A DNA stretch of 64,000 bases from Columba livia. Taxonomy: Eukaryota. The notes beneath the pieces were generated by a model, which was not told the origin of the DNA, did not search any database, and was given only the letters and a program-made list of their open reading frames with translations. Shown here one piece after another: positions 1 to 61,329 of this stretch. Where the stretch lies: NCBI RefSeq assembly GCF_036013475.1, contig NC_088636.1, positions 391,066 to 455,065 of the forward strand. The letters are read 5' to 3'. Position 1 is the stretch's first letter. The number at the start of each line of letters is the position of its first letter. The position numbers and the translations under genes were made by a program.

Positions 1-1270
1 CAAATAACCCAATTTTGGGGTCAAATGTCCTGTATTTGGGGTCAAATAACCCATTTTTAGGGTCAAATAGCCCATTTTTAGGGTCACCGAGTCCATTTTT
101 GGGGTCAAATAACCCATTTTTGGGGGTCAAATAACCCATTTTTGGGGCCAAATAACCCATTTTTGGGGTCAAACAACCCAATTTTGGGGTCAAGCAAGCC
201 ATTTCTGGGGGTCAAACAAGCCATTTTTGGGGTCAAATAGCCCATTTTTGGGGTCAAACAGCCCATTTTTGGGGTCACCGAGTCCATTTTTGGGGCCAAA
301 TAACCCATTTTTAGGGTCAAATATCCCCTTTTTGGGGTCAAACAAGCCATTTTTGGGCTCAAATAGTCCATTTTTGGGGCTCAAATAGCCCATTTTTGGG
401 GTCAAATAACCCATTTTTGGGGTCAAACAAGCCATTTTTGGGGTGGCCGAGGCCGTTTCTGGGGTCACTGCGGCTGTTTTTGGGGTCAAATAACCCATTT
501 TTGGGGTTGAATAACCCATTTTTAGGGTCACTGAAGCCATTTTTGGGGTCAAACAACCCATTTTTGGGGTCAAAGAACCCATTTTTGGGGTCAAATAACC
601 CGTTTTTGGGGTCAAATAACCCGTTTTTGGGGTCAAACAAGCCGTTTTTGGGGTCAAATAACCCACTTTTAGGGCCAAATAACCCACTTTTAGGGGTCAA
701 ACAACCCATTTTGGGGTCAAATAACCCAGTTTTGGGGTGGCCGAGGCCGTTTTTGGGGTCAAACAAGCCATTTTTGGGGTCAAATAACGCATTTTTGGGG
801 GTCAAAGAATCCATTTTTGGGGCCAAATAACCCATTTTTGGGGTCAAATAACCCAATTTTGGGGTCAAACAAGCCGTTTTTGGGGGTCAAAGAATCCATT
901 TTTGGGGCCAAATAACCCATTTCTGGGGTCAAATGTCCTGTTTTTGGGGTCAAATGTCCTGTTTTTGGGGTCAAATAACCCGTTTTTGGGGTCGCCGAAG
1001 CAATTTTTGGGGTCAAATAACCACTTTTAGGGTCAAACAACCCAATTTTGGGGTCAAACAACCCAATTTTGGGGTCAAATAACCCAATTTTGGGGTCAAA
1101 CAAGCCATTTTTGGGGTTGAAAAAGCCATTTTGGCATCGAATAACCCATTTTTGGGGTCAAATAACCCATTTCTGGGGTCAAATAACCCATTTTTGGGGT
1201 CAAACAAGCCGTTTTTGGGGTCAAACAAGCCGTTTTTGGGGTCACCGGTGCCGTTTTTGGGGCGGAATAC
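1..1270. repeat. Tandem satellite, about 21-22-bp unit (GGGGTCAAATAACCCATTTTT and variants)
   Basis: Visible head-to-tail periodicity across the whole segment. The ORFs on both strands are repeat artefacts. Confidence 0.9.
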
Positions 1271-1280
1271 CCGTTTTTGG

Positions 1281-1417
1281 TCAGGTGGTGCGCGCGCGGG
1301 CGCCGGGCGGGAAGAGGTCGAGGCCGGTGCGCAGGATCTGCTGCTCCAGCGCCTGGTGCCGCTTCATGTCCCACAGCACCTTGTCCAGCGCCGCGCGCCG
1401 CGCCACGCGGCCGGCCC
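1281..1417 (-). CDS. PAGR1: PAGR1 terminal coding exon (stop at 1281-1283)
   Basis: The acceptor is tttcggcag at 1418-1419 on the minus strand. The translation is [45 protein letters not shown], compared with human [30 protein letters not shown]. Confidence 0.8.
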
Positions 1418-1426
1418 CTGCCGAAA

Positions 1427-2770
1427 CACCCCAAATCAGACCAAATCCACCCAAATCAGCCCAAATCTGCACCTTGTCCAGCGCCGCGCGCCGCGCCACG
1501 CGGCCGGCCCCTGCCGAAAACACACCAAATCAGACCAAATCCACCCAAATCCACCCAAATCTGCACCTTGTCCAGCGCCGCGCGCCGCGCCACGCGACCG
1601 GCCCCTGCCGAAAACACACCAAATCAGACCAAATCCACCCAAATCCACCCAAATCTGCACCTTGTCCAGCGCCGCGCGCCGCGCCACGCGGCCGGCCCCT
1701 GCCGAAACACCCCAAATCAGACCAAATCCACCCAAATCCACCCAAATCTGCACCTTGTCCAGCGCCGCGCGCCGCGCCACGCGACCGCCCCCTGCCCAAA
1801 TACCCCAAATCAGACCAAATCTGCCCATATCTGACCAAATCTGCCCAAATCCGCCCAAATCTGCACCTTGTCCAGCGCCGCGCGCCGCGCCACGCGACCG
1901 GCCCCTGCAAATACACCAAATCAGACCAAATCTGCCCAAATCAGCCCAAATCTGCACCTTGTCCAGCGCCGCGCGCCGCGCCACGCGACCGGCCCCTGCC
2001 GAAATACACCAAATCAGACCAAATCAGACCAAATCTGCACCGCGCCACGCGACCAACCCCTGCCGAAACACCCCAAATCAGCCCAAATCTGCCCAAATCT
2101 GCCCAAATCAGCCCAAATCAGCCCAAATCTGCCCAAATCTGCCCAAATCAGACCAAATCTGCCCAAATCTGCACCCTGTCCAGCGCCGCGCGCCGCGCCA
2201 CGCGACCGCCCCCTGCCCAAATACCCCAAATCAGACCAAATCTGACCAAATCAGCTCAAATCCGCCCAAATCAGCCCAAATCCGCCCCAAATCAGCCCAA
2301 ATCGGCCCAAATCAGCTCAAATCCGCCCCAAATCCGCCCCAAATCCACCCCGCGCCACGCGACCGCCCCCTGCAAATACACCAAATCAGACCAAGTCAGC
2401 CCAAATCTGCACCGCGCCACGCGACCGGCCCCTGCCGAAAACAGCACAAATCAGCCCAAATCTGCCCAAATCCACCCCAAATCCGCCCCAAATCCGCCCC
2501 GCGCCACGCGACCGCCCCCTGCCCAAAATACACCAAATCAGCCCAAATCAGCCCAAATCTGCACCGCGCCACGCGACCCGCCCCTGCCAAAAATACACCA
2601 AATCAGCCCAAATCTGCCCAAATCCACCCCAAATCCACAAAAATCAGCCCAAATCAGCCCAAATCCGCCCCAAATCCACCCAAAATCCGCCCCAAATCCG
2701 CCCCAAATCAGCCCAAATCTGCACCGCGCCACGCGCCCGCTCCCTGCCAAAAACAGCCCCTTTCAGCCCA
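1427..2770. repeat. Tandem array of about 120-bp units (plus truncated roughly 60-bp units) that copies the PAGR1 exon-3 acceptor and its first 45 nt
   Basis: Each unit contains caccttgtccagcgccgcgcgccgcgccacgcgRccgScccctgccgaaa, which is the reverse complement of the PAGR1 acceptor plus exon 3 start, followed by (accaaatcNNcccaaatc)n. Confidence 0.85.
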
Positions 2771-3010
2771 AATCTGCACCATGGGGGGGGTTGGGGGGGG
2801 GTTGGGGGGGTTTGGAGGGATTGAGGGGGGGTTGAGGGGGGGTTTGGGGGGGTTGGGGGGGGGTTGAGGGGGGGTTGGGGGGGATTGAGGGGGGTTGGGG
2901 GGGGTTTGAGGGGGGGTTTGGGGGGGGTTGGGGGGGTTTGGAGGGATTTAGGGGGGGTTTGGGGGGTTTGGGGGGGGTTTTTGGGGGGTTTTTTAGGGAG
3001 TTTTGGGGGG
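2771..3010. repeat. G-rich tract (G5-9 T/A)n
   Basis: Runs of gggggggg separated by tt or a. It has G-quadruplex potential on the plus strand. Confidence 0.8.
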
Positions 3011-3039
3011 AAAGGCGTTGGGGTCAATGGGTGATGTGT

Positions 3040-4262
3040 GGGGGGTAATTAAGGGGTTAACTAAGGGGTTAACTAAGGGACTAACGAGGGCAGTAGCGGT
3101 AATTAGGGGCTAACGAGGGCAGTGAAGCGGTAATTAGGGGCTAACGAGGGCAGTGAAGGGGTAATTAGGGGCTAACGAGGGCAGTGAAGCGGTAATTAGG
3201 GGCTAACGAGGGCAGTGAAGCGGTAATTAGGGGCTAACGAGGGCAGTGGAGCGGTAATTAGGAGCTAACGAGGGCAGTGAAGGGGTAATTAGGGGCTAAC
3301 GAGGGCAGTGGGGGTAATTAGGGGCTAACGAGGGCAGTGGGGTAATTAGGGGCTAACGAGGGCAGTAGCGGTAATTAGGGGCTAACGAGGGCAGTGGGGG
3401 TAATTAGGGGCTAACGAGGGCAGTAGCGGTAATTAGGGGCTAACGAGGGCAGTAGCGGTAATTAGGGGCTAACGAGGGCAGTGAAGGGGTAATTAGGGGC
3501 TAACGAGGGCAGTGAAGGGGTAATTAGGGGCTAACGAGGGCAGTGGGGGTAATTAGGGGCTAACGAGGGCAGTGGGGGTAATTAGGGGCTAACGAGGGCA
3601 GTGGGGGTAATTAGGGGCTAACGAGGGCAGTGGGGGTAATTAGGGGCTAACGAGGGCAGTGGGGGTAATTAGGGGCTAACGAGGGCAGTGGGGGTAATTA
3701 GGGGCTAACGAGGGCAGTGGGGGTAATTAGGGGCTAACGAGGGCAGTGGGGGTAATTAGGGGCTAACGAGGGCAGTGGAGCAGTAATTAGGGGCTAACGA
3801 GGGCAGTGAAGGGGTAATTAGGGGCTAACGAGGGCAGTGGAGCGGTAATTAGGGGCTAACGAGGGCAGTAGAGCGGTAATTAGGGGCTAACGAGGGCAGT
3901 GGAGCAGTAATTAGGGGCTAACGAGGGCAGTGAAGGGGTAATTAGGGGCTAACGAGGGCAGTGGAGTGGTAATTAGGGGCTAACGAGGGCAGTGAAGGGG
4001 TAATTAGGGGCTAACGAGGGCAGTGGAGCAGTAATTAGGGGCTAACGAGGGCAGTGAAGGGGTAATTAGGGGCTACCGAGGGCAGTAGAGCGGTAATTAG
4101 GGGCTAACGAGGGCAGTGGAGTGGTAATTAGGGGCTAACGAGGGCAGTGGAGTGGTAATTAGGGGCTAACGAGGGCAGTGAAGCGGTAATTAGGGGCTAA
4201 CGAGGGCAGTGGGGGTAATTAGGGGCTAACGAGGGCAGTGGAGTGGTAATTAGGGGCTAACG
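3040..4262. repeat. Tandem satellite, about 31-bp unit (GGTAATTAGGGGCTAACGAGGGCAGTGAAGC)
   Basis: About 38 near-identical copies, with variants containing gtagcg and gtggag. Confidence 0.9.
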
Positions 4263-4270
4263 AGGCTCAC

Positions 4271-4353
4271 CGTGTGCGCGGCGCCGGTCGATCAGCGGCC
4301 GCTGCGGCGCCACCGGCTCGTCCTCAAACTCGAACTGCGGCACCACCGGGGGC
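4271..4353 (-). CDS. PAGR1: PAGR1 coding exon 2
   Basis: The acceptor is cccgcag and the donor is GTGAGC on the minus strand. The translation is KPPVVPQFEFEDEPVAPQRPLIDRRRAH, compared with human [24 protein letters not shown]. Phases link exon 1 (2 nt) and exon 3 (1 nt over). Confidence 0.8.
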
Positions 4354-4374
4354 CTGCGGGACAACGGCCGCTCA

Positions 4375-5600
4375 CCGGGGGCGGGGCCTGGGGGGGGCGG
4401 GGCCAGGGGGGCGGGGTCCATGGGGGCACACGGTCCAATGGGGGGGCAGCGTCCAAGTTGGAGGGGGGCGGGGTCCAAGGTGGAGGGGGCAGGGTCCAAG
4501 GTGGAGGGGGTGGGGCCCATGGAGGGGGCGGGGCCCAAGGTGGAGGGGGGCGGGGTCCAAGGTAGATGGGGGCGGGGCCCAAGGTGGAGGGGGCGGGGTC
4601 CAAGGTAGAGGGGGGCGGGGCCATGGAGGGGGGCGGGGTCCAAGGTGGATGGGGCGGGGCCCATGGAGGGGGGCGGGGTCCAAAGTGGATGGGGCAGGGC
4701 CCATGGAGGGGGGCGGGGTCCAAAGTGGATGGGTCGGGGCCAATGGAGGGGGGCGGGGTCCAAGGTGGAGGGGGGGCGGGGTCCAAGTGGATGGGGCGGG
4801 GCCCATGGAGGGGGCGGGGCCTAAGGTGGAGGGGGCGGGGTCCAAAGTGGATGGGGCGGGGCCCATGGAGGGGGGCGGGGTCCAAGGTGGAGGGGGGGCG
4901 GGGTCCAAAGTGGATGGGGCGGGGCCCATGGAGGGGGGCGGGGTCCAAGGTGGCGGGGGGACGGGGTCCAAAGTGGATGGGGCGGGGCCCAAGGTGGAGG
5001 GGGGCGGGGCCCCAGGTGGAGGGGGCGGGGCACATGGAGGGGGGGCGGGGTCCAAGGTGGAGAGGGGCAGGGTCCAACGTAGAGGGGGCGGGGCCCATGG
5101 AGGGGGGGCAGGGTCCAATGTGGCGGGGGGCGGGGTCCAAGGTGGAGGGGGTGGGGCCCATGGAGGGGGCGGGGTCCAAGGTGGAGGGGCGGGGTCCAAA
5201 GTGGATGGGGCGGGGCCTATGGAGGGGGGCGGGGTCCAAGGTGGAGGGGGGGCGGGGTCCAAAGTGGATGGGGCGGGGCCTATGGAGGGGGGAGGGGTCC
5301 AAGGTGGAGGGGGGGCGGGGTCCAAGGTGGATGGGGCGGGGCCCATGGAGGGGGGAGGGGTCCAAGGTGGAGGGGGGGCGGGGTCCAAAGTGGATGGGGA
5401 TGGGCCCATGGAGGGGGGCAGGGTCCAAGGTGGAGGGGGGGCGGGGCCCCAGGTGGAGGGGGGCGGGGCCCATGGAGGGGGGCGGGGTCCAAAGTGGATG
5501 GGGGTGGGCCCATGGAGGGGGGCGGGGTCCAAGGTGGAGGGGGGGCGGGGTCCAAGGTGGATGGGGCGGGGCCCCAGGTGGAGGGGGGCGGGGCCCATGG
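4375..5600. repeat. Tandem satellite, about 39-bp unit (GGGGCGGGGTCCAAGGTGGAG + GGGGCGGGGCCCATGGAG)
   Basis: A regular alternation of TCCAAGGTGGA and CCCATGGAG sub-units sits within PAGR1 intron 1. The long ORFs here are artefacts. Confidence 0.9.
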
Positions 5601-5960
5601 AGGGGCCAGGAGTTCTGAGGGACCCAAATAGGGGACCCAGGAGTTCTGAGGGACCCAGGCGTCCGGGAGAGGGCCCAAATAGGGGACCCAGGAGTTCTGA
5701 GGGACCCAAGTAGGGGACCCAGGCGTTCGGGAGGGACCCAAGTAAGGGACCCAGGCATTCGCGAGGGACCCAAGTAGGTGACCCAGGCGTTCGGGAGGGA
5801 CCCAAATAGGGGACCCAGGCGTTCGGGAGGGACCCAAGTAAGGGACCCAGGCGTTCGGGAGGGACCCAAGTAGGGGACCCAGGCGTTCGGGAGGGACCCA
5901 AGTAGGGGACCCAGGCGCTCGGGAGGGACCCAAGTAGGGGACCCAGGCGCTCGGGAGGGA
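5600..5960. repeat. Tandem satellite, about 33-bp unit (GGGACCCAAGTAGGGGACCCAGGCGTTCGGGAG)
   Basis: About 10 copies. It belongs to the GGGACCCAGG family. Confidence 0.85.
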
Positions 5961-5977
5961 CCCAGCCCCGCCCTCAC

Positions 5978-6282
5978 TTGTCCGGCCTCTCCTGCGGCGG
6001 CTCCTCGCTGCTCTCGCAGGCGGGCGCCGCCTCCCGCAGGGGGGTGGGCGGTCTCCGCGGCCTGGCCGGCCGCCGCAGCTCCAGCGTGCCGCGCTGCGCG
6101 ATCAGCTCCAGCAGCCGCCGGATCTCGGGGGGCGCGGGCGCCCACCCCCCGCCTTCCTCCTCCTCCTCCTCCTCATCGCTGCGCGGCACGCACCAATCAG
6201 CGTCGTCCGTGGCCCAATTGGCGGCGGCGGCGGACCAATGGGCGTCCGAGGGGGCGGGGCCGGGGGCGGGGTCGGCGTCCAT
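5978..6282 (-). CDS. PAGR1: PAXIP1-associated glutamate-rich protein 1 (PA1), coding exon 1 including the start codon
   Basis: Minus-strand ATG at 6282-6280. The translation is [101 protein letters not shown]. It matches the conserved PA1 core DWCVPCSDEE...[20 protein letters not shown]...PRRPPTPE. The exon ends at a GTGAGG donor; the apparent TGA stop belongs to that donor. It is phase 2, which is consistent with exon 2. Confidence 0.8.
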
Positions 6283-6389
6283 CGTGGCGGGCGCGGGGGG
6301 GGGGCGGGGAATTGGCGGGAAGGGCGGGCTCGGCCGCCATGGCTGCGGAGCGGGAAACGGCCTGCGGAAACGGGGCTGAGTCAAAAAAT

Positions 6390-7250
6390 GGGGATTTATG
6401 TAAAAAATCGGGGGGTTGCCTCAAAAAATGGGGGGTTTACCTCAGTAAATGGGGGGTTTGCCTCAAAAAATGGGGGGTTTACGTCAAAAAATGGGGGATT
6501 TACCTCAATAAATGGGGGATCTACGTCAAAAAATGAGGGGTTTGCCTCAAAAAATGGTGATTTACCTCAAAAAATGAGGATTTACCTCAAAATATGGGGG
6601 GTTTGCCTCAAAAAATGGTGATTTACCTCAAAAAATGGGGATTTACCTCAATAAATGGGGATTTACCTCAATAAATGGGGATTTACGTCAAAAAATGGGG
6701 ATTTACCTCAATAAATGGGGGATTTACCTCAAAAAATGGTGATTTACCTCAAAAAATGAGGGATTTACCTCAATAAATGGGGATTTACCTGAAAAAATGA
6801 GGGATTTACCTCAAAAAATGAGGATTTACCTCAAAAAATGAGGGATTTACCTCAAAAAATGAGGATTTACCTCAAAAAATGAGGGATTTACCTCAAAAAA
6901 TGGGCATTTACCTCAAAAAATGGTGATTTACCTCAAAAAATTGGGATTTACCTCAATAAATGGGGATTTACCTCAAAAAATGGGGATTTACCTCAATAAA
7001 TGGGGGATTTACCTCAATAAATGGGGGATTTACCTCAAAAAATGAGGATTTACCTCAAAAAAATGAGGGATTTACCTCAAAAAAGGGATTTACCTCAAAA
7101 AATGGGGATTTATGGCAAAAAATGGAGATTTATGTTCAAAAAATGGGGGGTTTGCCTCAAAAACGGGGATATTTACCCCAAAAATGGGTCATTTACCTCA
7201 CAAATTCAATTATTTGCCTGAAAAATGGGTTATTTGCCCCAAAAAATCAA
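6390..7250. repeat. Tandem satellite, about 30-33-bp unit (TCAAAAAATGGGGATTTACCTCAATAAATGGGG)
   Basis: Regular periodicity. It is AT-richer than the surrounding sequence. Confidence 0.9.
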
Positions 7251-7279
7251 ACTGGTCTGTACTGGGGTCACTGGTCTAT

Positions 7280-7620
7280 ATTGGGAATGGGGGTCACTGG
7301 CTCCTACCGGCTCCGGCGTCTCCTCAATGGCGGCGGCGTCGGCGATGGGGGGGGCGCGTCCCCTCTCTCCCCGCCCACCCCTTCATCCGCCCAATCACCG
7401 CGCTCTCCCTTCCCCACATCGCCCTCTCATTGGCCGCCCCACTTTAACCCCGCCCCCTTCCTGGCACGCCCGCTTCCTTTCACTTCACCTCCCTCCCCGC
7501 GCATGCGCGCCCCGTCCTCCGGCGGGTTCCACTTCCGGTTGGCCGCCAGCGCCATCTTGGATCCGGGGCGGCGGGAAAAGCGGCGGCACCGGGGGGTCCC
7601 CCCCCCCCCCAGGGTGATTT
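7280..7620. promoter_or_regulatory. CpG-island promoter, probably bidirectional (PAGR1 on the minus strand, a TAOK2 5' non-coding exon on the plus strand)
   Basis: A unique GC-rich block lies between satellites. It contains a CCAAT box at 7391-7395 and an inverted one at 7428-7433, an NRF1 site GCGCATGCGC at 7499-7508, an ETS/GABP site CACTTCCGG at 7530-7538 and a YY1 core GCCATCTTGG at 7551-7560. Downstream on the plus strand are tandem GAGAACGGT repeats with GGTGAG donors (7757-7790) that could end a 5' UTR exon. Confidence 0.45.
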
Positions 7621-7779
7621 TGGGGTGAAATCGGCGCTTTTTGGGGCTCCCCGGAGCGGGGGGGGCGGCCGGACCCCCCCCCCGGAGCTGCAGCCGCCGG
7701 GGGGGGGAAACCTATGGGGCCGGGCGGGACCCACAAGCGGAGACAGCGGAGAGAACGGTGAGAACGGTGAGAACGGTGA

Positions 7780-9892: not shown

Positions 9893-10002
9893 ATGCCGTC
9901 GCTCAGCCCACGGATCCCGGGCTGTTCCGCCCCGAAGATCCCGAGAGCCTGTTTGGTGACCTGCGCGAGATCGGCCACGGCAGCTTCGGCGCCGTCTACT
10001 GC
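9893..10002 (+). CDS. TAOK2: TAO kinase 2, first coding exon (putative ATG at 9893; both boundaries uncertain)
   Basis: The kinase frame 9913-9999 encodes [29 protein letters not shown], matching the TAOK1/2 N-terminus and the start of the GxGxxG loop. ATG CCG TCG (MPS, as in TAOK1 MPS...) is 1 nt out of frame with it. The only GT donors (10003 and 10008) do not give the phase-1 junction that exon 2 requires. Confidence 0.6.
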
Positions 10003-10009
10003 GTTGAGT

Positions 10010-11170
10010 GCCGCCCCATAGCGCCCCATAGCGCCCCATAGCTGCCCCATAGCGCCCCACAGCGCCCCATAGCGCCCCATAGCGCCCCATAGCGCCCCAT
10101 AGCTGCCCCATAGCTGCCCCATAGCGCCCCATAGCTGCCCATAACTGCCCCATAGCGGCCCCATAGCGGCCCCATAGCGCCCCATAGCCGCCCCATAGCG
10201 CCCCATAGCCGCCCCATAGCGCCCCATAGCCGCCCCATAGCGCCCCATAGCCACCCCATAACTGCCCCATACGCCGCCCCATAACTGCCCCATAGCGGCC
10301 CCATAGCGGCCCCATAGCGCCCCATAGCTGCCCCATAGCCGCCCCATAGGCCGCCCCATAGCCACCCCATAGCCGCCCCACAGCGCCCCATAGCGCCCCA
10401 CAGCCGCCCCATAGCGCCCCATAGCCGCCCCATAGCTGCCCCATAGCGCCCCATAGCTGCCCCATAACTGCCCCATAGCGGCCCCATAGCGGCCCCATAG
10501 CGCCCCATAGCGCCCCATAGCGCCCCATAGCGCCCCATAGCTGCCCCATAGCGCCCCATAGCTGCCCCATAACTGCCCCATACGGCCCCATAGCGGCCCC
10601 ATAGCGGCCCCATAGCGCCCCATAGCGCCCCATAGCTGCCCCATAGCCGCCCCATAGCCACCCCCATAGCCGCCCCCACCAGCGCCCCATAGCGCCCCAC
10701 AGCCGCCCCATAGCGTCCCCATAGCTGCCCCATAGCTGCCCCATAGCTGCCCCATAGCGCCCCATAGCGCCCCATAGCCGCCCCATAGCGCCCCATAGCG
10801 CCCCATAGCTGCCCCATAGCGCCCCATAGCTGCCCCATAGCGGCCCCATAGCGCCCCATAGCGCCCCATAGCTGCCCCATAGCCCGCCCCATAGCCACCC
10901 CATAGCCGCCCCACAGCGCCCCATAGCGCCCCACAGCCGCCCCATAGCGTCCCCATAGCTGCCCCATAGCGCCCCATAGTGCTCCATAGCACCCCATAGC
11001 TGCCCCATAGTGGCCCCATAGCAGCCCCATAGCTGCCCCATATCACCCCATAGCTGCCCCATAGCCGCCCCATAGCGCCCCATATCGCCCCATAGCGCCC
11101 CATAGCCGCCCCATAGCGCCCCATAGCGCCCCATAGCGCCCCATAGCTGCCCCATAGCGCCCCATATTGC
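10010..11170. repeat. Tandem satellite, 10-11-bp unit (GCCCCATAGCG/GCCCCATAGCT)
   Basis: The array starts immediately after the TAOK2 exon 1 donor and ends at the exon 2 acceptor. Confidence 0.9.
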
Positions 11171-11187
11171 CCCACAACCGCCCCCAG

Positions 11188-11258
11188 GCCGGGACCTTCG
11201 CACCAACGAACTCGTCGCAATTAAGAAAATGTCGTATGGCGGGAAACGATCTGACGAG
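11188..11258 (+). CDS. TAOK2: TAOK2 coding exon 2
   Basis: The acceptor is cgcccccag and the donor is GTAACT. The translation is (x)RDLRTNELVAIKKMSYGGKRSDE, compared with human ARDVRNSEVVAIKKMSYSGKQSNE (the VAIK lysine). Confidence 0.85.
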
Positions 11259-11269
11259 GTAACTGAGAC

Positions 11270-12475
11270 CCACACGGGGACCCAGGCGTCCGGGGGACCC
11301 AGGAGTTCTGGGGGAGGGACCCAGGAGTTCTGGAGGAGGGACCCAGGAGTTCTGGGAGGGACCCAGGAGTTCTGGGAGGGACCCAGGAGTTCGGGAGGGA
11401 CCCAGGAGTTCTGGGAGGGACCCAGGAGTTCGGGGGGGACCCAGGAGTTCGGGAGGGACCCAGGAGTTCTGGGGGAGGGACCCAGGAGTTCTGGGAGGGA
11501 CCCAGGAGTTCTGGAGCAGGGACCCAGGAGTTCGGGATGGACCCAGGAGTTCTGGAGCAGGGACCCAGGAGTTCTGGGGGGACCCAGGAGTTCTGGAGGA
11601 GGGACCCAGGAGTTCTGGAGGAGGGACCCAGGAGTTCTGGGAGGGGACCCAGGAGTTCGGGAGGGACCCAGGAGTTCTGGGGGAGGGACCCAGGAGTTCT
11701 GGGGGAGGGACCCAGGAGTTCTGGGGGAGGGACCCAGGAGTTCTGGGGGAGGGACCCAGGAGTTCTGGGGGAGGGACCCAGGAGTTCTGGGGGAGGGACC
11801 CAGGAGTTCTGGGAGGGACCCAGGAGTTCTGGGGAGGGGGCCCGGGCGTTCGGGGGAGGACCCAGGAGTGCCCCAGGGACCCAGGCGTCCGGGAGGGACC
11901 CAGGAGTTCTGGAGGGACCCAGGAGTTCTGGGAGGGACCCAGGAGTTCTGGGGGAGGGACCCAGGCGTTCGGGGGAGGACCCAGGAGTGCCCCAGGGACC
12001 CAGGTGTTCAGGGAGGGACCCAGGAGTTCTGGGGAGGGACCCAGGAGTTCTGGGGAGGGACCCAGGCGTTCGGGGGAGGACCCAGGAGTGCCCCAGGGAC
12101 CCAGGTGTTCAGGGAGGGACCCAGGCGTCCGGGAGGGACCCAGGCGTCCGGGAGGGACCCAGGCGTTCTGGGGGACCCAGGAGTTTGGGGAGGGACCCAG
12201 GAGTTCGGGAGGGACCCAGGAGTTCTGGGGGAGGGACCCAGGCGTTCGGGGGAGGACCCAGGAGTGCCCCAGGGACCCAGGTGTTCAGGGAGGGACCCAG
12301 GCGTCCGGGAGGGACCCAGGCGTCCGGGAGGGACCCAGGCGTTCTGGGGGACCCAGGAGTTTGGGGAGGGACCCAGGAGTTCGGGAGGGACCCAGGCATC
12401 CGTGGGGGGACCCAGGCGTCCGGGAGGGACCCAGGCGTCCGGGAGGGACCCAGGCGTCCGGGCCCCCACGGCCCC
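11270..12475. repeat. Tandem satellite, about 21-bp unit (GGGACCCAGGAGTTCTGGGAG family)
   Basis: Regular copies with GCGTCC and GTGCCC variants. Confidence 0.9.
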
Positions 12476-12493
12476 GTGGGTCTGTGCCCACAG

Positions 12494-12596
12494 AAGTGGC
12501 GCGACATCGTGCGCGAGGTGTCGCTGCTGCAGCGGCTGCGCCACCCGAACACCGTGGGCTTCCGGGGCTGCTACCTGCGCGGGCACACGGGCCTGG
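12494..12596 (+). CDS. TAOK2: TAOK2 coding exon 3
   Basis: The acceptor is tctgtgcccacag. The translation is KWRDIVREVSLLQRLRHPNTVGFRGCYLRGHTGL, compared with [34 protein letters not shown]. The donor GTGAGC at 12597 leaves a phase mismatch of 1 nt with exon 4; a ctgGGTgag G-run is the suspected cause. Confidence 0.8.
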
Positions 12597-12599
12597 GTG

Positions 12600-15500
12600 A
12601 GCGACCCCCAAGTGTGGGGCGGACCCACAAGTGTGGGGCGGGACCCATAAGTGTGGGGCAGGACCCCCAAGTGTGGGGCGGGGGAGGGGGGGGGTTGAAA
12701 ATGGGGGTCTTAGGGGTTTTTTAGGCTCAGAAATGGGGTTTTGGGGGGTGGGTTTGGGACCCCCAAGTGTGGGGCTGGACCCACAAGTGTGGGGCGGGGG
12801 AGGGGCAGGTTGAAAATGGGGGTCTTCGGGTTTTTTTAGGCTCAGAAATGGGGTTTTGGGGGGGGGGTTGGGACCCATAAGTGTGGGGCAGGACCCATAA
12901 GTGTGGGGCGGGACCCACAAGTGTGGGGCGGGGGGTTTGGATGCTGGGAATGGGAGTTATTGGGTTGGATTTGGGCTCAGAAATCAGGGTTGGGGGGCAT
13001 TGGGACCCAAAAGTGTGGGGCTGGACCCATAAGTGTGGGGCTGGACCCACAAGTGTGGGGGCGGGACCCACAAGTGTGGGGCGGGACCCCCAAGTGTGGG
13101 GCGGGGGAGGGGCAGGTTGAAAATGGGGGTCTTAGGGGTTTTTTAGCTCAGAAATGGGGTTTTGGGGGTGGGTTTGGGACCCCCAAGTGTGGGGCGGGAC
13201 CCCCAAGTGTGGGGCGGGACCCACAAGTGTGGGGCTGGACCCCCAAGTGTGGGGCGGGGGAGGGGGGGGTTGAAAATGGGGGTCTTTGGGGTTTTTTAGG
13301 CTCAGAAATGGGGGTTTTGGGGGGGGGTTTGGGACCCCCAAGTGTGGGGCTGGACCCCCCAAGTGTGGGGCGGGGGAGGGGGGTGTTGAAAATGGGGGTC
13401 TTTGGGGTTTTTTTAGGCTCAGAAATGGGGTTTTGGGGGGGGGGTTGGGACCCATAAGTGTGGGGCAGGACCCATAAGTGTGGGGCGGGACCCACAAGTG
13501 TGGGGCGGGGGGTTTGGATGCTGGGAATGGGAGTTATAGGGTTGGATTTGGGCTCAGGAATCAGGGTTGGGGGGCATTGGGACCCACAAGTGTGGGGCGG
13601 ACCCCCAAGTGTGGGGCAGACCCACAAGTGTGGGGCAGGACCCATAAGTGTGGGGCGGGGGAGGGGGGGTTGAAAATGGGGGTCTTCGGGGTTTTTTAGG
13701 CTCAGAAATGGGGTTTTGGGGGTGGGTTTGGGACCCCCAAGTGTGGGGCTGGACCCATAAGTGTGGGGCTGGACCCATAAGTGTGGGGGCGGGGGAGGGG
13801 GGGGTTGAAAATGGGGGTCTTTGGGGTTTTTTAGGCTCAGAAATGGGGTTTCGGGGGTGGGTTTGGGACCCCCAAGTGTGGGGCAGGACCCCCAAGTGTG
13901 GGGCGGGACCCACAAGTGTGGGGCGGGACCCCCAAGTGTGGGGCGGGGGGTTTGGATGCTGGGAATGGGAGTTATAGGGTTGGATTTGGGCTCAGGAATC
14001 AGGGTTGGGGGATATTGGGACCCACAAGTGTGGGGCGGGACCCACAAGTGTGGGGCGGGGGGAGGGGGGTGTTGAAAATGGGGGTCTTCGGGGTTTTTTA
14101 GGCTCAGAAATGGGGTTTTGGGGGGGGGTTGGGACCCATAAGTGTGGGGCAGGACCCATAAGTGTGGGACAGGACCCATAAGTGTGGGGCGGGACCCACA
14201 AGGTGTGGGGCGGGGGGTTTGGGTGCTGGGAATGGGAGTTATTGGGTTGGATTTGGGCTCAGAAATCAGGGTTGGGGGGCATTGGACCCAAAAGTGTGGG
14301 GCTGGACCCATAAGTGTGGGGCTGGACCCACAAGTGTGGGGCGGGACCCACAAGTGTGGGGCGGGACCCCCAAGTGTGGGGCGGGGGAGGGGCAGGTTGA
14401 AAATGGGGGTCTTAGGGGTTTTTTAGGCTCAGAAATGGGGTTTTGGGGGTGGGTTTGGGACCCCCAAGTGTGGGGCTGGACCCATAAGTGTGGGGCGGGG
14501 GAGGGGGGGGTTGAAAATGGGGGTCTTTGGGGTTTTTTAGGCTCAGAAATGGGGTTTTGGGGGTGGGTTTGGGACCCCCAAGTGTGGGGCTGGACCCATA
14601 AGTGTGGGGCGGGGGAGGGGGGTGTTGAAAATGGGGGTCTTCGGGGTTTTTTAGGCTCAGAAATGGGGTTTTGGGGGGGGGTTGGGACCCATAAGTGTGG
14701 GGCAGGACCCATAAGTGTGGGACAGGACCCATAAGTGTGGGGCGGGGGGTTTGGGTGCTGGGAATGGGAGTTATTGGGTTGGATTTGGGCTCAGAAATCA
14801 GGGTTGGGGGGCATTGGGACCCACAAGTGTGGGGCTGGACCCACAAGTGTGGGGCTGGACCCACAAGTGTGGGGCGGGACCCACAAGTGTGGGGCGGGAC
14901 CCACAAGTGTGGGGCGGGACCCCAAGTGTGGGGCGGGGGAGGGTGGGGTTGAAAATGGGGGTCTTCGGGGTTTTTTAGGCTCAGAAATGGGGTTTTTGGG
15001 GGTGGGTTTGGGACCCATAAGTGTGGGGCGGGACCCATAAGTGTGGGGCGGGACCCACAAGTGTGGGGCGGGGGGTTTGGGTGCTGGGAATGGGTGTTAT
15101 TGGGTTGGATTTGGGCTCAGAAATCAGGGTTGGGGGGCATTGGGACCCCCAAGTGTGGGGCGGGACCCCCAAGTGTGGGGCGGACCCACAAGTGTGGGGC
15201 AGGACCCATAAAGTGTGGGGCGGGGGAGGGGGGGTTGAAAATGGGGGTCTTCGGGGTTTTTTAGGCTCAGAAATGGGGTTTTGGGGGTGGGTTTGGACCC
15301 CCAAGTGTGGGGCGGGACCCATAAGTGTGGGGCGGGGGTTTGGGTGCTGGGAATGGGAGTTATTGGGTTGGATTTGGGCTCAGAAATCAGGTTGGGGGGC
15401 ATTGGGACCCATAAGTGTGGGGCAGGACCCCCAAGTGTGGGGCAGGACCCCCAAGTGTGGGGCGGGACCCCCCAAGTGTGGGGCGGGGGGAGGGGGAGGT

Positions 15501-15900
15501 TGAAAATGGGTGTCTTTGGGGTTTTTTAGGCTCAGAAATGGGGTTTTGGGGGTGGGCTTGGGCCCCATAAGTGTGGGGCGGGACCCATAGATGTGGGGCA
15601 GGGGGTGTCAGGCCCCATAGGTGTGGGGCAGGACCCATAGATGTGGGGCTGGGGGAGGGTTTGGGGCCCAGAAATGGATTGCGGGGACATTGGGACCCAT
15701 AGATGTGGGGCAGGGGGTGTCTGGCCCCATAAGTGTGGGGCTGACCCATAAGTGTGGGGCAGGACCCATAAGTGTGGGGCAGGGGGTGTTGGGCCTCATA
15801 ATTGTTGGGGAAGGACTTGGGCCCCAGGAATGGGGGGTTGGGGACACTGGGACCCACAGATGTGGGGCAGGGGTTGTCCGGCCCCATAAGTGTGGGGCGG
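12600..15900. repeat. Composite satellite: a 20-bp unit (GGGACCCACAAGTGTGGGGC) with interspersed units of about 75 and about 80 bp, forming an irregular higher-order structure
   Basis: The marker blocks GTTGAAAATGGGGGTCTT...GGCTCAGAAATGGGG and GATGCTGGGAATGGGAGTTATTGGGTTGGATTTGGGCTCAG recur 14 and 7 times. Confidence 0.85.
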
Positions 15901-15947
15901 AGGGTCCGTCCGGCCCCACATCCATGGGGCAGGGCCGCTCTCCTCAG

Positions 15948-15993
15948 CTGGCCATGGAGCGCTGCCTGGGCTCGGCCGCCGACCTGCTGGAGG
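15948..15993 (+). CDS. TAOK2: TAOK2 coding exon 4
   Basis: The acceptor is ctctcctcag and the donor is GTGAGT. The translation is LAMERCLGSAADLLE, compared with LVMEYCLGSASDLLE. Confidence 0.85.
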
Positions 15994-16068
15994 GTGAGTG
16001 CTGTGGGGCGGCGCTATGGGGCAGCCCCATAGATCCCGGGGCTCACCCCCCAACCTCTGCCCCACAAG

Positions 16069-16166
16069 TGCACAAGAAGCCGCTGCGGGAGGCGGAGATC
16101 GCGGCCATCAGCCAGGGGGGCGCTGCGCGGGCTGGCCTACCTGCACCGCCTGGGGGTCATCCACAG
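16069..16166 (+). CDS. TAOK2: TAOK2 coding exon 5 (contains an apparent +1 G frameshift in the run at 16115-16120)
   Basis: The translation is VHKKPLREAEIAAISQG, then after a 1-nt shift ALRGLAYLHRLGVIHR, compared with [33 protein letters not shown]. The donor is GTCAGA at 16167. With one G removed, the phases fit exons 4 and 6 exactly. Confidence 0.8.
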
Positions 16167-16169
16167 GTC

Positions 16170-17980
16170 AGACCCATAGATTGACCCATAGATTGACCCA
16201 TAGATTGACCCATAGATTGACCCATAGGTCCTGACCCATAGCGCGACCATCGGCTTGCGTTGTGTTGGGCTTTCTGGTTCTTTTCTTGCTTGTGTTTGTG
16301 CTGCCCACAGATCCTGCCCCACAGATCCTGCCCCACAGATCCTGCCCCACAGATCCTGCCCCACAGATCCTGCCCCATAGATTTTGCCCCATAGATCTCC
16401 GCCATAGATCTGCCCTATAGATTGTGACCCATAGCGAGACCCATAGCAGGACCCACAGCCCCTGTTGTGGTGGTTTTTCTAGGTGTCCTCTTGCTTTTGT
16501 CCTGCCCCATAGATCCTGCCCCATAGATCCTGCCCTATAGATGTCCTGCCCCATAGATCCTGCCCCATAGATCCTGCCCTATAGATCCTGCCCCATAGTG
16601 AGACCCATAGATCCTGCTCTATAGATCCTGCCCCATAGCAGGACCCACAGCCCGTGTTGTGTTGGTTTCTCTGGGTCTTTTCTTGCTTGTGTTTATTGTT
16701 CCCGCCCCATAGATCCCGCCCCATAGATCCTGCCCCATAGCGGGACCCACAGATCCTGCCCCATAGATCCTGCCCCATATATCCTGGCCCTTAACCTGCC
16801 CTATAGATCCTGCCCCACAGATCCTGCCCATAGCAGGACCCACAGCCCCCGTTGTGGTGGTTTTTCTAGGTGTCCTCTTGCTTTTGTCCTGCCCCATAGA
16901 TCCTGCCCCATAGATCCTGCCCCATAGATCCTGACCCATAGATCCTGACCCATAGATCCTGACCCATAGCAGGACCCACAGCCCCCGTTGTGGTTGTTTC
17001 TCTGGGTCTTTTCTTGCTTGTGTTTATTGTTCCCACCCCATAGATCCTGCTCCATAGATCCTGCCCCATAGATCCTGCCCCATATATCCTGGCCCTTAAC
17101 CTGCCCTATAGATCCTGCCCCACAGATCCTGCCCCATAGCAGGACCCACAGCCCCCGTTGTGGTGGTTTTTCTAGGTGTCCTCTTGCTTTTGTCCTGCCC
17201 CATAGATCCTGCCCCATAGATCCTGCCCCATAGCGAGACCCGTAGATCCTGCCCCATAGATCCTGCCTCATAGCGAGACCCATAGATCATGCCCCATAGA
17301 TCCTGCCCCATAGCAGGACACACAGCCCCTGTTGTGTTGGTTTCTCTGGGTCTTTTCTTGCTTGTGTTTGTTGTTCCTGCCCCACAGATCCTGCCCCATA
17401 ACCTGCCCCATAGATCCTGCCCCATAGCGGGACCCATAGATGCTGCCCTATAGATGCTGCCGTATAGGTGCTGCCCCATAGCGGGACCCATAGATCCTGC
17501 CCCATAGATCCTGCCCCATAGATCCTGCCCCGTAGCAGGAGCCATAGATCCTGCCCCATAGATTCTGACCCATAGATCCTGCCCCATAGCAGGACCCACA
17601 GCCCATGTTGTGGCGGTTTTTCTGGGTCTTTTCTTGCTTGTGTTTGTTGTTCCTGCCCCACAGATCCTGCCCCATAACCTGCCCCATAGATCCTGCCCCA
17701 TAACCTGCCCCGTAGATCCTGCCCCATAGATTCCGCCCCATAGATCCTGCCCCATAGCGGGACCCACAGATCCTGCCCCACAGATCCTGCCCCATAGATC
17801 CTGTGCCATAGCGGGACCCATAGATCCTGCCCCACAGATCCTGACCCATAGATCCTGCCCCATAGCGGGACACACAGATCCTGCCCCATAGATCCTGCCC
17901 CACAGATCCTGAGCCATAGATCCTGCCCCATAGCAGGACCCATAGATCCTGCCCCACAGATCCTGACCCATAGATCCTGC
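16170..17980. repeat. Tandem satellite, about 15-bp unit (CATAGATCCTGCCCC) with a roughly 300-bp higher-order unit
   Basis: The block GCAGGACCCACAGCCCCCGTTGTGGTGGTTTTTCTAGGTGTCCTCTTGCTTTTGTCCTGCC recurs about every 300 bp. Confidence 0.85.
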
Positions 17981-18650
17981 CCTACGGCTCCAGCCCCACA
18001 GCTCCAGCCCCACTGATTCCGCCCCACTGATTCCGCCCCACTGATCCTGTCCCACTGCTCCCGCCCCACTGATCCCGCCCACTGATCCTGTCCCACTGAT
18101 CCGACCCCACTGCTCCCGCCCCACAGCTCCCGCCCCACTGATCCAGCCCCACTGATCCGGCCCCACTGCTCCCGCCCCACAGCTCCCGCCCCACTGATCC
18201 AGCCCCACAGCTCCCGCCCCACAGCTCCCGCCCCACAGCTCCCGCCCCACTGATCCAGCCCCACTGATCCGGCCCACTGATCCCGCCCCACTGATCCGAC
18301 CCCACTGCTCCCGCCCCACTGATCCGGCCCCACTGATCCGGCCCCACTGATCCTGCCCCACTGATCCGGCCCCACTGATCCAGCCCCACTGATCCGGCCC
18401 CACTGCTCCCGCCCCACTGATCCCGCCCCACTGATCCCGCCCCACTGACCCGGCCCCACTGATCCCGCCCCACGGCTCCTGCCCCACTGATCCAGCCCCA
18501 CTGACCCGGCCCCACTGATCCCGCCCCACTGATCCTGCCCCACTGACCCTGCCCCACTGACCCTGCCCCACTGACCCTGCCCCACTGACCCTGCCCCACT
18601 GATCCGGCCCCACTGATCCCGCCCCACTGACCCGGCCCCACGGCTCCCGC
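17980..18650. repeat. Tandem satellite, 15-bp unit (CACTGATCCGGCCCC/CACTGCTCCCGCCCC)
   Basis: Regular copies ending at the TAOK2 exon 6 acceptor. Confidence 0.9.
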
Positions 18651-18656
18651 CCGCAG

Positions 18657-18770
18657 GGACGTGAAGGCCGGGAACATCCTGCTGAGCGCCGTGGGGCAGG
18701 TCAAGTTGGGCGACTTCGGCTCCGCCGCCACGGCCGCCCCCAGCGGAGCCTTCGTGGGGACGCCCTACTG
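18657..18770 (+). CDS. TAOK2: TAOK2 coding exon 6 (catalytic loop and DFG)
   Basis: The acceptor is cccgcag and the donor is GTGAGC. The translation is (R)[38 protein letters not shown], compared with [39 protein letters not shown]. Confidence 0.9.
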
Positions 18771-18774
18771 GTGA

Positions 18775-19835
18775 GCGCCCCCCACGTGTGGGGCGGGACC
18801 CCCGGGTGTGGGGCTGGGACCCCCATGTGTGGGGCGGGACCCCCGAGTGTGGGGCTGGGACCCCCATGTGTGGGGCTGGGATTGGTGGTTGTGACCCCCG
18901 AGTGTGGGGCTGGACCCCCAAGTGTGGGGCTGGGATTGGTGGTTGTGACCCCCGAGTGTGGGGCTGGGACCCCCAAGTGTGGGGCTGGGACCCCCAAGTG
19001 TGGGGCTGGGATTGGTGGTTGTGACCCCCAAGTGTGGGGCTGGGACCCCCAAGTGTGGGGCTGGGACCCCCAAGTGTGGGGCTGGGATTGGTGGTTGTGA
19101 CCCCCAAGTGTGGGGCTGGGACCCCCACGTGTGGGGCAGGACCCCCAAGTGTGGGGCTGGGATTGGTGGTTGTGACCCCCAAGTGTGGGGCTGGGACCCC
19201 CACGTGTGGGGCAGGACCCCCAAGTGTGGGGCTGGGATTGGTGGTTGTGACCCCCAAGTGTGGGTCTGGGACCCCCAAGTGTGGGGCTGGGATTGGTGGC
19301 TGTGACCCCCAAGTGTGGGTCTGGGACCCCCAAGTGTGGGGCTGGGACCCATAGCGGGGCTGGGATTGGTGGTTGTGACCCCCAAGTGTGGGTCTGGGAC
19401 CCCCAAGTGTGGGGCTGGGATTGGTGGCTGTGACCCCCAAGTGTGGGTCTGGGACCCCCAAGTGTGGGGCTGGGACCCCCGAGTGTGGGGCTGGGATTGG
19501 TGGCTGTGACCCCCAAGTGTGGGGTGGGACCCCCGAGTGTGGGGCTGGACCCCCAAGTGTGGGGCTGGGACCCACAGCGGGGCTGGGATTGGTGGCTGGG
19601 ACCCCCAAGTGTGGGGCTGGGATTGGTGGTTGTGATCCCCGAGTGTGGGTCTGGGACCCCCAAGTGTGGGTCTGGGACCCCCAAGTGTGGGGCTGGGATT
19701 GGTGGTTGTGATCCCCGAGTGTGGGTCTGGGACCCCCAAGTGTGGGGCTGGGATTGGTGGTTGTGACCCCCAAGTGTGGGGCTGGACCCCCAAGTGTGGG
19801 GCTGGGATTGGTGGCTGTGACCCCCAAGTGTGGGC
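18775..19835. repeat. Tandem satellite, about 21-bp (GGGACCCCCAAGTGTGGGGCT) and about 33-bp (GGGATTGGTGGTTGTGACCCCCAAGTGTGGGGCT) units
   Basis: Alternating sub-units related to the 12600-15900 family. Confidence 0.85.
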
Positions 19836-19859
19836 TGAGTTCAGAGAGGGGGGACCCGG

Positions 19860-22650: not shown

Positions 22651-22679
22651 CATCTCCCCCCATGTCCCCGTGTCCCCAG

Positions 22680-22773
22680 CGGAGCGGAAGCCGCCGCTGT
22701 TCCACCTGAACGCCATGAGCGCGCTGTTCCACATCGCCCAGAGCGACCCCCCCCGCCTGCCCCCCGCCCCGTG
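22680..22773 (+). CDS. TAOK2: TAOK2 coding exon 8
   Basis: The acceptor is tgtccccag and the donor is GTGAGC. The translation is [31 protein letters not shown](W), compared with [32 protein letters not shown]. Confidence 0.9.
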
Positions 22774-22789
22774 GTGAGCCGCACGCCTG

Positions 22790-23285
22790 GGTCCCCCCCG
22801 GACGCCTGGGTCCCTCAGAACACCTGGGTCCCCTCCCGAACTCCTGGGTCCCTCCTGCACTCCTGGGTCCCCCCGAACGCCTGGGTCCCTCCCTGAACAC
22901 CTGGGTCCCTGGGGCACTCCTGGGTCTCCCCCCGGACGCCTGGGTCCCCCAAAACGCCTGGGTCCCCTCCCGGACGCCTGGGTCCCTCCCCAACCTCCTG
23001 GGTCCTCTCCCTAAACTCCTGGGTCCCTCAGAACTCCTGGGTCCCTCTCTGACCTCCTGGGTCCCCCCCGGACGCCTGGGTCCCCCTTCCGAACTCCTGG
23101 GTCCCCCCCCCCCGGACGCCTGGGTCCCTCCCCGGACGCCTGGGTCCCTCAGAACTCCTGGGTCCCTCCCCCCCGAACGCCTGGGTCCCTCCCCCCCAAA
23201 CGCCTGGGTCCCTCCCCGGACGCCTGGGTCCCTCAGAACTCCTGGGTCCCCCCCGGACGCCTGGGTCCCCCGGACGCCGGGGTCC
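22790..23285. repeat. Tandem satellite, about 20-bp unit (GACGCCTGGGTCCCTCCCCG), the reverse orientation of the GGGACCCAGG family
   Basis: It starts directly after the exon 8 donor and ends at the exon 9 acceptor. Confidence 0.9.
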
Positions 23286-23299
23286 CTGTCGGGTCGCAG

Positions 23300-23381
23300 G
23301 TCGCCGTGTTTCCGGGGGTTCGTGGGTTCGTGTCTCCAGAAGCAGCCGCAGGATCGACCCACGGCCGACGAGCTGCTGCAG
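23300..23381 (+). CDS. TAOK2: TAOK2 coding exon 9
   Basis: The acceptor is gggtcgcag and the donor is GTTAAT. The translation is (W)SPCFRGFVGSCLQKQPQDRPTADELLQ, compared with [27 protein letters not shown]. Confidence 0.85.
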
Positions 23382-23394
23382 GTTAATTACCGCT

Positions 23395-24200: not shown

Positions 24201-24335
24201 CCATTGATTCCCCCATTGATCCCATTCATTCATTCATTCATTCATTCATTCATTCATCCATGTGTCCCCCATTCATCCCCTCGTCCCCTCACCCCATTGG
24301 CTCATTCTCCCCTTTGGCCCCGCCCCTTTCTCCAG

Positions 24336-24497: not shown

Positions 24498-24539
24498 GTT
24501 TGGGGGGGGGGGGGAGGGAATTGGGGACATTTTGGTCAC

Positions 24540-25865: not shown

Positions 25866-25881
25866 TCCCCATCACCCCCAG

Positions 25882-26097: not shown

Positions 26098-26199
26098 GTG
26101 AGTCCGCGAGGGTCCCGAACCCCCAAAAACGCCCTAAAATGGGTTAAACGCCCCAAAATGCGGTTGAGACCCCAAAGAACCGTCAGGGCGACGATTAAA

Positions 26200-61321: not shown

Positions 61322-61329
61322 GTGAGGAC

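Follow-up and report, generated by a model that had tools for sequence, protein, structure and literature searches.

How does the spliceosome settle on the last exon of a gene when the intron before it carries 13 further copies of that exon's acceptor and first coding bases, and why are such copies there at all? The question is posed by the pigeon (Columba livia) gene PAGR1, encoding PA1, the PAXIP1/PTIP-associated protein, which occupies the minus strand of positions 1-6300 of the window, the whole 64,000-nucleotide (nt) stretch analyzed here (assembly GCF_036013475.1, contig NC_088636.1, positions 391,066 to 455,065). A sequence-only reading of this DNA had proposed that the exon-3 acceptor is amplified in intron 2 as a series of decoys. 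Our analysis indicates instead that the array is an instance of "exon stuttering," most likely a mutational by-product, and that the real acceptor is probably picked through the context provided by its downstream exon.

The gene assignment made in the sequence-only reading holds. A tblastn search with human PAGR1 gave three blocks, 6207-5980, 4337-4278, and 1400-1311, and the three exons (Table 1) together encode a canonical 174-residue PAGR1 in which Pfam PAXIP1_C spans residues 29-157. The top protein matches of this product are Columba livia PAGR1 (XP_064900382.1 and KAK2510975-7), followed by the PAGR1 proteins of Patagioenas fasciata and then Caloenas nicobarica. Upstream of exon 3 in the direction of transcription, tandem minus-strand units that join an acceptor to the exon-3 start do occupy 1418-2777, and the AG of the authentic acceptor lies at 1419-1418, both as first read. 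The minus strand has 14 instances of the 12-mer CGCGTGGCGCGG, one in the real exon and the rest in 13 copies, and the plus strand has none; the extra acceptors number 13 where "about 15" had been estimated. Seven are long copies, carrying about 41 nt of exon 3 in an exon part that runs through GACAAGGTG, and six are short copies, in which the first 20 nt of the exon run straight into the 10-mer repeat (copies are named below by the position of their first exon base). Successive copies are separated by 93, 94, 94, 93, 113, 91, 64, 153, 157, 62, 87, 65, and 160 nt, a range of 62-160 nt rather than a unit of roughly 120 bp. The five proximal units are the most regular, with a 93- to 94-nt period and 95% identity, and the terminal unit of the array overlaps the real exon 3 by 42 nt. 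Tandem Repeats Finder (TRF) reports the array as 1376-1844 (period 94, 95% matches), 1376-2025, and 2297-2777, and the reference copy from a repeat-family search, 1376-1460, likewise spans the real exon-3 start. Beyond base 42, the real exon continues CTGTGGGACATG and the copies continue CAGATTTGGG; within the shared part, exon bases 4-8 distinguish the copies, reading GGGCCGGC, GGGCCGGT, or GGGGCGGT. The shared coding part amounts to 14 residues, one fewer than the 15 codons first counted, and the exon pattern with a single T/C difference ascribed to every unit is found in five of the seven long copies, the other two having two or three mismatches and the six short copies only 20 nt. When exon 3 was compared with the intron by blastn-short, seven matches of 34-42 nt were obtained at 60.0-83.8 bits, five of them beginning at exon base 1; the best match in 20 shuffled introns reached 32.2 bits, and chance similarity is therefore excluded. 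Over 9 kb the window is collinear with another pigeon assembly, GCA_032206205.1 (locus L001), in which all 14 cores recur with identical order and variants; the copy number is the same there.

Hron et al. (Genome Biol Evol 2026, PMC12954441; bioRxiv 2025) introduced the term "sequence stuttering" for repeats on chicken dot chromosomes and "exon stuttering" for the form seen in a subset of introns. In the chicken, the source of the copies is no more than 1 base away from the exon border in >90% of cases, the exon part measures 20-187 nt (median 36), and there are 1-44 copies (median 4) spanning 112-23,555 bp; 190 of the 236 affected introns are on dot chromosomes, a strong but not absolute preference, and a few percent of dot-chromosome introns are affected, without known function (PMC12954441). 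The copies create potential alternatively spliced transcripts, the phenomenon being documented there in chicken only, without splicing data, and unreported elsewhere (PMC12954441). Minisatellite-rich dot-chromosome introns have been noted in other birds, including the band-tailed pigeon (bioRxiv 10.1101/2025.10.17.683159). PAGR1 is not mentioned in the text or in two supplements of Hron et al., and beyond that work we found no other paper using either stuttering term.

The screen of Hron et al. compares each exon with its proximal intron by blastn-short and retains matches of at least 20 nt and at least 42.1 bits that exceed a shuffled-intron control. The pigeon array passes this screen with its seven matches, the six 20-nt copies remaining below the threshold (at most 32.2 bits). 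All 13 copies of the exon-3 start in intron 2 are direct, that is, on the gene strand; the exon border is their source, with gcag preceding 13 of 13 copies in addition to the five matches that start at base 1; and 98.6% of the host intron is covered by TRF repeats. The pigeon values fall in the chicken ranges (exon part 20-41 nt; 13 copies, or 7 by the threshold of Hron et al.; span ~1.35 kb). As in chicken exon stuttering, for example in PHF8 intron 18, tandem imperfect copies of an exon edge with its splice site extend across the adjacent intron, which is almost wholly tandem repeat while the exon itself is intact. By its sequence, then, the PAGR1 array is a case of a class so far described only in chicken, and it shows that exon stuttering occurs in another bird order.

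Related pigeons make the history of the array readable. In Patagioenas fasciata (locus L004), intron 2 consists in order of a ctcgttagcccct satellite past the exon-2 donor, a C-rich array, and an array of 60- to 62-nt units with a 122-nt higher-order period and 97% identity, in which ttgcag/ (here and below, a slash marks the splice junction) is followed by 27 nt of that species' own exon 3; the six extra acceptors comprise five in tandem and one isolated copy upstream of the real acceptor. In Caloenas nicobarica (locus L005), intron 2 is 1.2 kb long and AT-rich, with one acceptor and no array, and its intron end (gcggttttgggtgaaaaggtgtgttttttgcgattccag) and exon start (GCCCCTCCGGGCGCG...GGGCGGCGCTGGACAAGGTG) are homologous to the Columba repeat unit. 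A homologous junction without an array identifies the exon as the source of the copies and not the reverse, and the single acceptor dates the first duplication after the Caloenas split; the direction of copying, from exon to array, was thus rightly called in the sequence-only reading, LDKV being conserved to human. The copies match the exon-start variant of their own species, GGGCCGGYCGCGTGGCGCGG in Columba and GCCCGGGCCGCGTGTSGCGG in Patagioenas. The junction GGGCGG/(A)TTTGGG is common to two Columba short copies and the Patagioenas units and, together with the similar unit length and position, suggests that the two arrays share ancestry. The satellite at the exon-2 donor (window 3041-4265) has a counterpart in the same position in Patagioenas (L004 13153-13331; ctcgttagcccct or cattaac, 11-nt period), so the intron-only stuttering at that border is also shared by both genera. 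Unlike in chicken, the pigeon array can therefore be followed over two genera and an array-free outgroup, from none in Caloenas, through a short-unit array in Patagioenas, to short and newer long units in Columba, with copies that track their own species' exon variant. This cross-genus history, the apparent coevolution of copies and exon, and the effect on public gene models are what the pigeon locus adds to the chicken data.

A further observation on the same gene comes from a passerine. In Motacilla alba PAGR1 (locus L006), at least the last 129 nt of exon 1, with the donor AA/gtgaat, recur three more times in intron 1 (Table 1), a case of donor-side exon stuttering of the same gene. A partial exon-3 copy, 78% identical, also lies downstream (L006 9273-9422).

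From the pigeon comparisons we infer the following order of events. A local tandem-repeat expansion at the 3' end of intron 2 would have taken the intron/exon-3 junction into its unit. As proposed for chicken, the expansion would have come about in GC-rich, structure-prone, repeat-saturated sequence through replication-associated slippage, gene conversion, or unequal exchange. The first duplication would have occurred in the common ancestor of Columba and Patagioenas, from a unique segment that joined the last ~35-40 nt of the intron, with its branch point, weak pyrimidine tract, and CAG, to the first 20-27 nt of exon 3. A later, Columba-specific round may then have produced the proximal 93- to 94-nt units with 41 nt of exon, their junction lying at a point of resemblance between the exon (GGTGCTGTGGG) and the intronic 10-mer (GGTCTGATTTGGG). 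Within a species, continued unequal exchange or gene conversion would hold the copies similar both to one another and to the real exon over its first 41 nt, and variants could pass between the copies and these 41 coding bases. Such apparent homogenization of 41 coding nt with intronic copies may help to explain the fast evolution of this part of PA1 in pigeons. Since the last unit is always fused to the unique rest of exon 3, the gene survives drift in copy number. The exon-3 start also forms a GC hairpin, GCCGCG-TGG-CGCGGC, at -10 to -13 kcal/mol as RNA, with an equivalent present in Patagioenas.

According to this model the copies would not be maintained as splice sites, and functional mRNA would come from the last acceptor, 1419-1418. 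The acceptors were compared through their 23-nt MaxEnt input strings (-20 to +3), their pyrimidine fraction, and the position of a yUnAy match. A yUnAy branch-point match (ctgAt) lies at -17 to -20 in 12 of the 13 copies, copy 2743 having none within 60 nt. CAG/GG is retained in all 13, and the pyrimidine fraction at -20 to -4 is 0.47 at the real site and 0.41-0.65 in the copies. The sequence-only reading had called all the acceptors sequence-identical; copies 1698 and 2059 are indeed identical to the real acceptor across -20 to +3, so that any score on that window equals that of the real site, and the others differ, the exact string tgtttcggcag, said to be present in every unit, occurring in those two copies only. 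Nothing in the sequence of the real acceptor itself thus sets it apart from such copies, and context must decide. Weak pyrimidine tracts rely on exonic enhancers. In the 90 nt past the shared part, the real exon has one G-tract and four GAAG, GGAG, or AGCAG motifs, and the copies have three to eight G-tracts and none of these motifs. We infer that the real site is favored as the only one with a real exon downstream, rich in purine-rich, enhancer-like motifs, and that the copies would be disfavored by the U/G-rich (GAUUUGGG)n sequence with intron-typical G-triplets that follows them. Auxiliary exonic sequences are reported to separate authentic from aberrant splice sites (PMC2095810), and hnRNP H-bound G-runs act as silencers in an exon context (PMC1079783). 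Use of 1419-1418 is likely to predominate, with low-level use of nearby copies, above all the in-frame copy 1510.

Sense-strand G-quadruplex motifs (runs of three or more G, loops of at most 7 nt) were also considered as a cause of silence of the proximal copies. Five such motifs are present, at 2071-2681, all in the distal half of the array, and none occurs in exon 3 or in its 3' flank down to position 1000; five motifs in the distal half are insufficient for that role, and the idea was rejected.

The coding outcome of copy use is set by phase and distance. The final base of exon 2 opens a glycine codon that is split by the intron (CACG/gt, phase 1), so every copy joins it in phase, and the exon 2-copy product reads ...(A/V)DLG.... 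This much of the in-frame fusion foreseen in the sequence-only reading stands. Only copy 1510, 93 nt from the real acceptor, reads in frame into the true C terminus, as a 31-residue insertion; in the other 12 the frame is lost and a stop is reached within the array after 17-186 residues. With copy 1698, for example, the PAXIP1_C match ends at profile position 118 of 132, a loss of 18 residues. On translation, the 12 copies other than 1510 would remove the end of the conserved PTIP-binding domain.

Several points weigh against a passive array with context-dependent splicing. Two copies equal the real site over -20 to +3, and several are richer in pyrimidines (0.59-0.65 vs. 0.47). Co-transcriptional, first-come splicing would favor the copies, whose silence is assumed in our model. 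In all 14 acceptors (1398-2747, minus strand), gcag/GG and the 12-nt core, which contains four CpGs, are invariant, the variation falling in exon bases 3-8 and the pyrimidine tract; recent homogenization, absent methylation, or constraint could each produce this pattern, and it could thus reflect constraint as well as recent homogenization. An independent origin of the arrays in Columba and Patagioenas is possible. Intron length polymorphism among chickens is a property of the phenomenon rather than a screening criterion (PMC12954441), and unlike the strongly polymorphic chicken introns, the two pigeon assemblies have the same copy number (n = 2, the independence of their reads being uncertain). 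Lastly, an additional exon annotated in the RefSeq protein holds 28 nt (CAGATTTGGG...TTTG) that are absent from the canonical mRNA.

One rival, which extends the sequence-only reading, holds that the spliceosome binds the copies and uses them appreciably, as functional decoys or as alternative acceptors. Its outcomes would be alternative C termini, a 23- or 31-residue insertion, or a trap that slows or lowers intron-2 removal, in which case the array would tune PAGR1 output and be maintained by selection. The copies do have complete splice-site signals (a branch-point match in 12 of 13, CAG/GG in all), two of them equal the real site over the MaxEnt window, the core is invariant, arrays exist in two genera, XP_064900382.1 contains a copy-derived, in-frame exon of 69 nt, and the nearest copy lies exactly 93 nt away, in frame. 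Frameshifted products would also escape nonsense-mediated decay (NMD), exon 3 being the last exon. We nonetheless regard this rival as unlikely. Splicing to 12 of the 13 copies would cost the protein the end of PAXIP1_C. In GCA_032206205.1, one inserted base makes the copy-1 spacing 94 nt instead of the 93 of the window, and the in-frame status of this copy is therefore polymorphic or affected by read error. Columba and Patagioenas have different copy numbers, unit lengths, and junctions, unexpectedly for a conserved device; similar arrays are found in a few percent of chicken dot-chromosome introns without known function (PMC12954441); and the annotation of copies can be explained by ambiguous alignment, as 38-nt pieces flanked by GT...AG yield the same protein. 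Searches of a collection of 5.8 billion proteins with canonical PAGR1 and with an exon 2-copy read-through product returned genome annotations only and no transcript-derived pigeon protein that would support copy use. Less likely still is the stronger form of this idea, in which the array would be a copy-number-dependent brake or isoform switch on PAGR1 kept since the Columba-Patagioenas split; it could act through intron-2 retention, through C-terminally altered PA1 that escapes NMD, or through the in-frame 23- or 31-residue forms. Were the copies engaged, they would provide the first evidence of a splicing phenotype for avian dot-chromosome exon stuttering and a natural 14-site cis-competition system.

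The public annotations deserve separate scrutiny, both pigeon gene sets having placed junctions on copies. One 69-nt exon, added at copy 1995 or at copy 1904 to the gene model read from the window, yields exactly XP_064900382.1; the protein fits both positions, and the added exon inserts 23 residues inside the Pfam domain. This exon reflects either genuine RNA evidence or an ab initio bridge from a misplaced junction to the true last exon. The GenBank proteins KAK2510975-7 (GCA_032206205.1) are three identical sequences whose range boundaries coincide exactly with copy acceptors and with the AAG/gtgcag ends of 38-nt pieces, and the C-terminal protein sequence is unchanged when any such piece stands in for the real exon start. 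The canonical mRNA fits the copies with a formally perfect GT...AG intron (gtgcag...gacaag/GTGCTG), which makes the GenBank models likely products of alignment ambiguity; since it aligns equally to any long copy, the copy junctions in both RefSeq and GenBank may be artifacts. The 23-residue insertion in the PTIP-binding domain of the RefSeq protein may accordingly not exist. In GCA_032206205.1, extra bases alter the PAGR1 C terminus, giving a different sequence in place of the terminal ARARTT.

Three known kinds of splice-site competition help to place the pigeon array. Decoy exons, reportedly described by Parra et al. in RNA in 2018, are said to cause intron retention and to be single conserved cryptic exons with both splice sites. 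The pigeon copies resemble them as intronic splice signals that could engage U2AF/U2 without productive mRNA; unlike decoy exons, for which retention of the host intron has been shown, they are 13 tandem copies of one acceptor without a matched strong donor. NAGNAG or short-distance tandem acceptors, which Hiller et al. are said to have described in 2004, reportedly have a single branch point and pyrimidine tract serving AGs 3-12 nt apart. There too repeated AGs compete for one donor, but the pigeon units are 62-160 nt apart, instead of a few nucleotides with a shared branch point, and a separate branch-point match accompanies 12 of the 13 copies. The third kind comprises constructs with 3' splice sites duplicated in cis, for which Reed and Maniatis reportedly found, in Cell in 1986, that the choice depends on the adjoining exon and on proximity, a mechanism of the sort proposed above for the pigeon. 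As in such cis-competition constructs and in the control of cryptic sites (Kralovicova and Vorechovsky 2007, PMC2095810), identical acceptors compete in cis; unlike these engineered or mutation-induced two-site cases, the pigeon array is natural and has 14 sites. It offers a natural test of 3' splice-site choice with up to 13 upstream copies, two of them identical over the scored window.

That the array, or its copy number, is a mis-assembly of a GC-rich repeat is very improbable. Dot chromosomes are difficult targets for sequencing and assembly (PMC12954441; bioRxiv 10.1101/2025.10.17.683159), and the second pigeon assembly differs over 9 kb by 15 substitutions and 71 insertions or deletions, 57 of them of 1 bp and one of 28 bp; most of the difference consists of insertions or deletions of 1-2 bases that resemble read errors. 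Against this, two separately deposited assemblies agree copy for copy, with zero substitutions and five one-base insertions between 2800 and 1250; the units hold ordered, distinct variants rather than a collapsed consensus; and a related array is present in the chromosome-level Patagioenas fasciata assembly. Equally hard to credit is the reverse direction, in which the exon-3 start would be a recently exonized satellite and the copies its source: the first 10-12 exon-3 residues are indeed poorly conserved among birds, most birds other than Columba having TPGPPSRGQKREAR, but human, ostrich, and kiwi all retain LDKV and the phase-1 split of the glycine codon, and Caloenas has the homologous exon start and intron end without the array.

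Table 1. Coordinates of the PAGR1 array, its copies, and other features of the locus (window positions unless a locus is named)
Feature	Position	Strand	Remarks
Exon-stuttering array	1376-2777	-	Higher-order minisatellite: NNGATTTGGG 10-mers + acceptor + exon-3 start
Long copy 1	1470-1510	-	41 nt identical to real exon; 93 nt upstream of real acceptor; 83.8 bits
Long copy 2	1564-1604	-	1 mismatch, synonymous C>T at exon base 8
Long copy 3	1658-1698	-	Identical to real site from -40 to +42
Long copy 4	1751-1791	-	2 mismatches; would encode GGGRV vs. GAGRV
Long copy 5	1864-1904	-	1836-1904 is one possible site of the RefSeq extra exon; donor TTTG/gtcaga
Long copy 6	1955-1995	-	1927-1995 is the other possible site of the RefSeq extra exon; donor TTTG/gtctga
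Long copy 7	2172-2212	-	3 mismatches
Short copy	2040-2059	-	20 nt of exon; acceptor identical to real site from -22 to +3
Short copy	2350-2369	-	Type ...GCGCGG/GGTGGATTTGGGG
Short copy	2412-2431	-	Type ...GCGCGG/TGCAGATTTGGG
Short copy	2499-2518	-	Type ...GCGCGG/GGCGGATTTGGGG; junction resembles Patagioenas unit junction GGGCGG/TTTGGG
Short copy	2564-2583	-	
Short copy, most distal and most diverged	2724-2743	-	No yUnAy match within 60 nt
PAGR1 coding exon 1	5978-6282	-	ATG at 6282; donor GACAA/gtgagg; from tblastn and junction reading
PAGR1 exon 2	4271-4353	-	83 nt; acceptor cccgcag/G; donor CACACG/gtgagc; next intron phase 1
PAGR1 exon 3, coding part	1281-1417	-	Acceptor gtgtttcggcag/GGGCCGG; ends ARARTT; stop TGA 1283-1281
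AG of authentic exon-3 acceptor	1418-1419	-	Exon start at 1417
C-rich (sense strand) 10- to 11-nt array in intron 2	2782-3010	-	
31-nt satellite, 5' part of intron 2	3041-4265	-	Begins 6 nt past exon-2 donor; unit includes ctcgttagcccctaattacc
21-nt satellite	1-1244	-	Begins ~35 nt past PAGR1 stop codon
KAK2510975-7 ranges	L001 11479-11516, 11570-11607, 11870-12257		GenBank annotation of GCA_032206205.1
Motacilla alba exon-1 copies	L006 4041-4170, 4914-5042, 5907-6036		97.7-100% identity; ~870-990 nt apart

Downstream of PAGR1, neither AATAAA nor ATTAAA occurs in the 1.28 kb available in the window, in 1.65 kb of the second assembly (L001 12258-13910), or in 3 kb of Patagioenas, and the 3' untranslated region therefore probably extends through the 21-nt satellite. 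Antisense to the array, two stop-free plus-strand open reading frames of 595 and 578 residues (1048-2867) were judged to be low-complexity read-through of repeats, not genes, and an Rfam scan of the whole window gave zero matches. Divergent from PAGR1, TAOK2 lies on the plus strand at ~9.9 to 28.5 kb (9922-28495), its short exons set amid satellites. When 11 TAOK2 coding blocks, mapped with a human sequence, were screened against 4 kb on each side, no exon copies of at least 42.1 bits were found, in keeping with reports that only a few percent of dot-chromosome introns are affected. TRF repeats cover 84.6% of the window and 94.8% of PAGR1 intron 1, in dozens of mutually unrelated arrays with periods of 8-308 nt, and leave five repeat-free stretches of at least 400 nt (5965-6380, 7205-7746, 26778-27362, 28542-28964, and 60227-61415). 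Descriptions of avian dot chromosomes give a landscape of this kind. XP_064900382.1 lies on a record of 489,914 bp, and the chromosome-level records with the PAGR1 orthologues measure 0.77 Mb in Caloenas and 2.1 Mb in Patagioenas; the PAGR1 locus is probably on a dot microchromosome.

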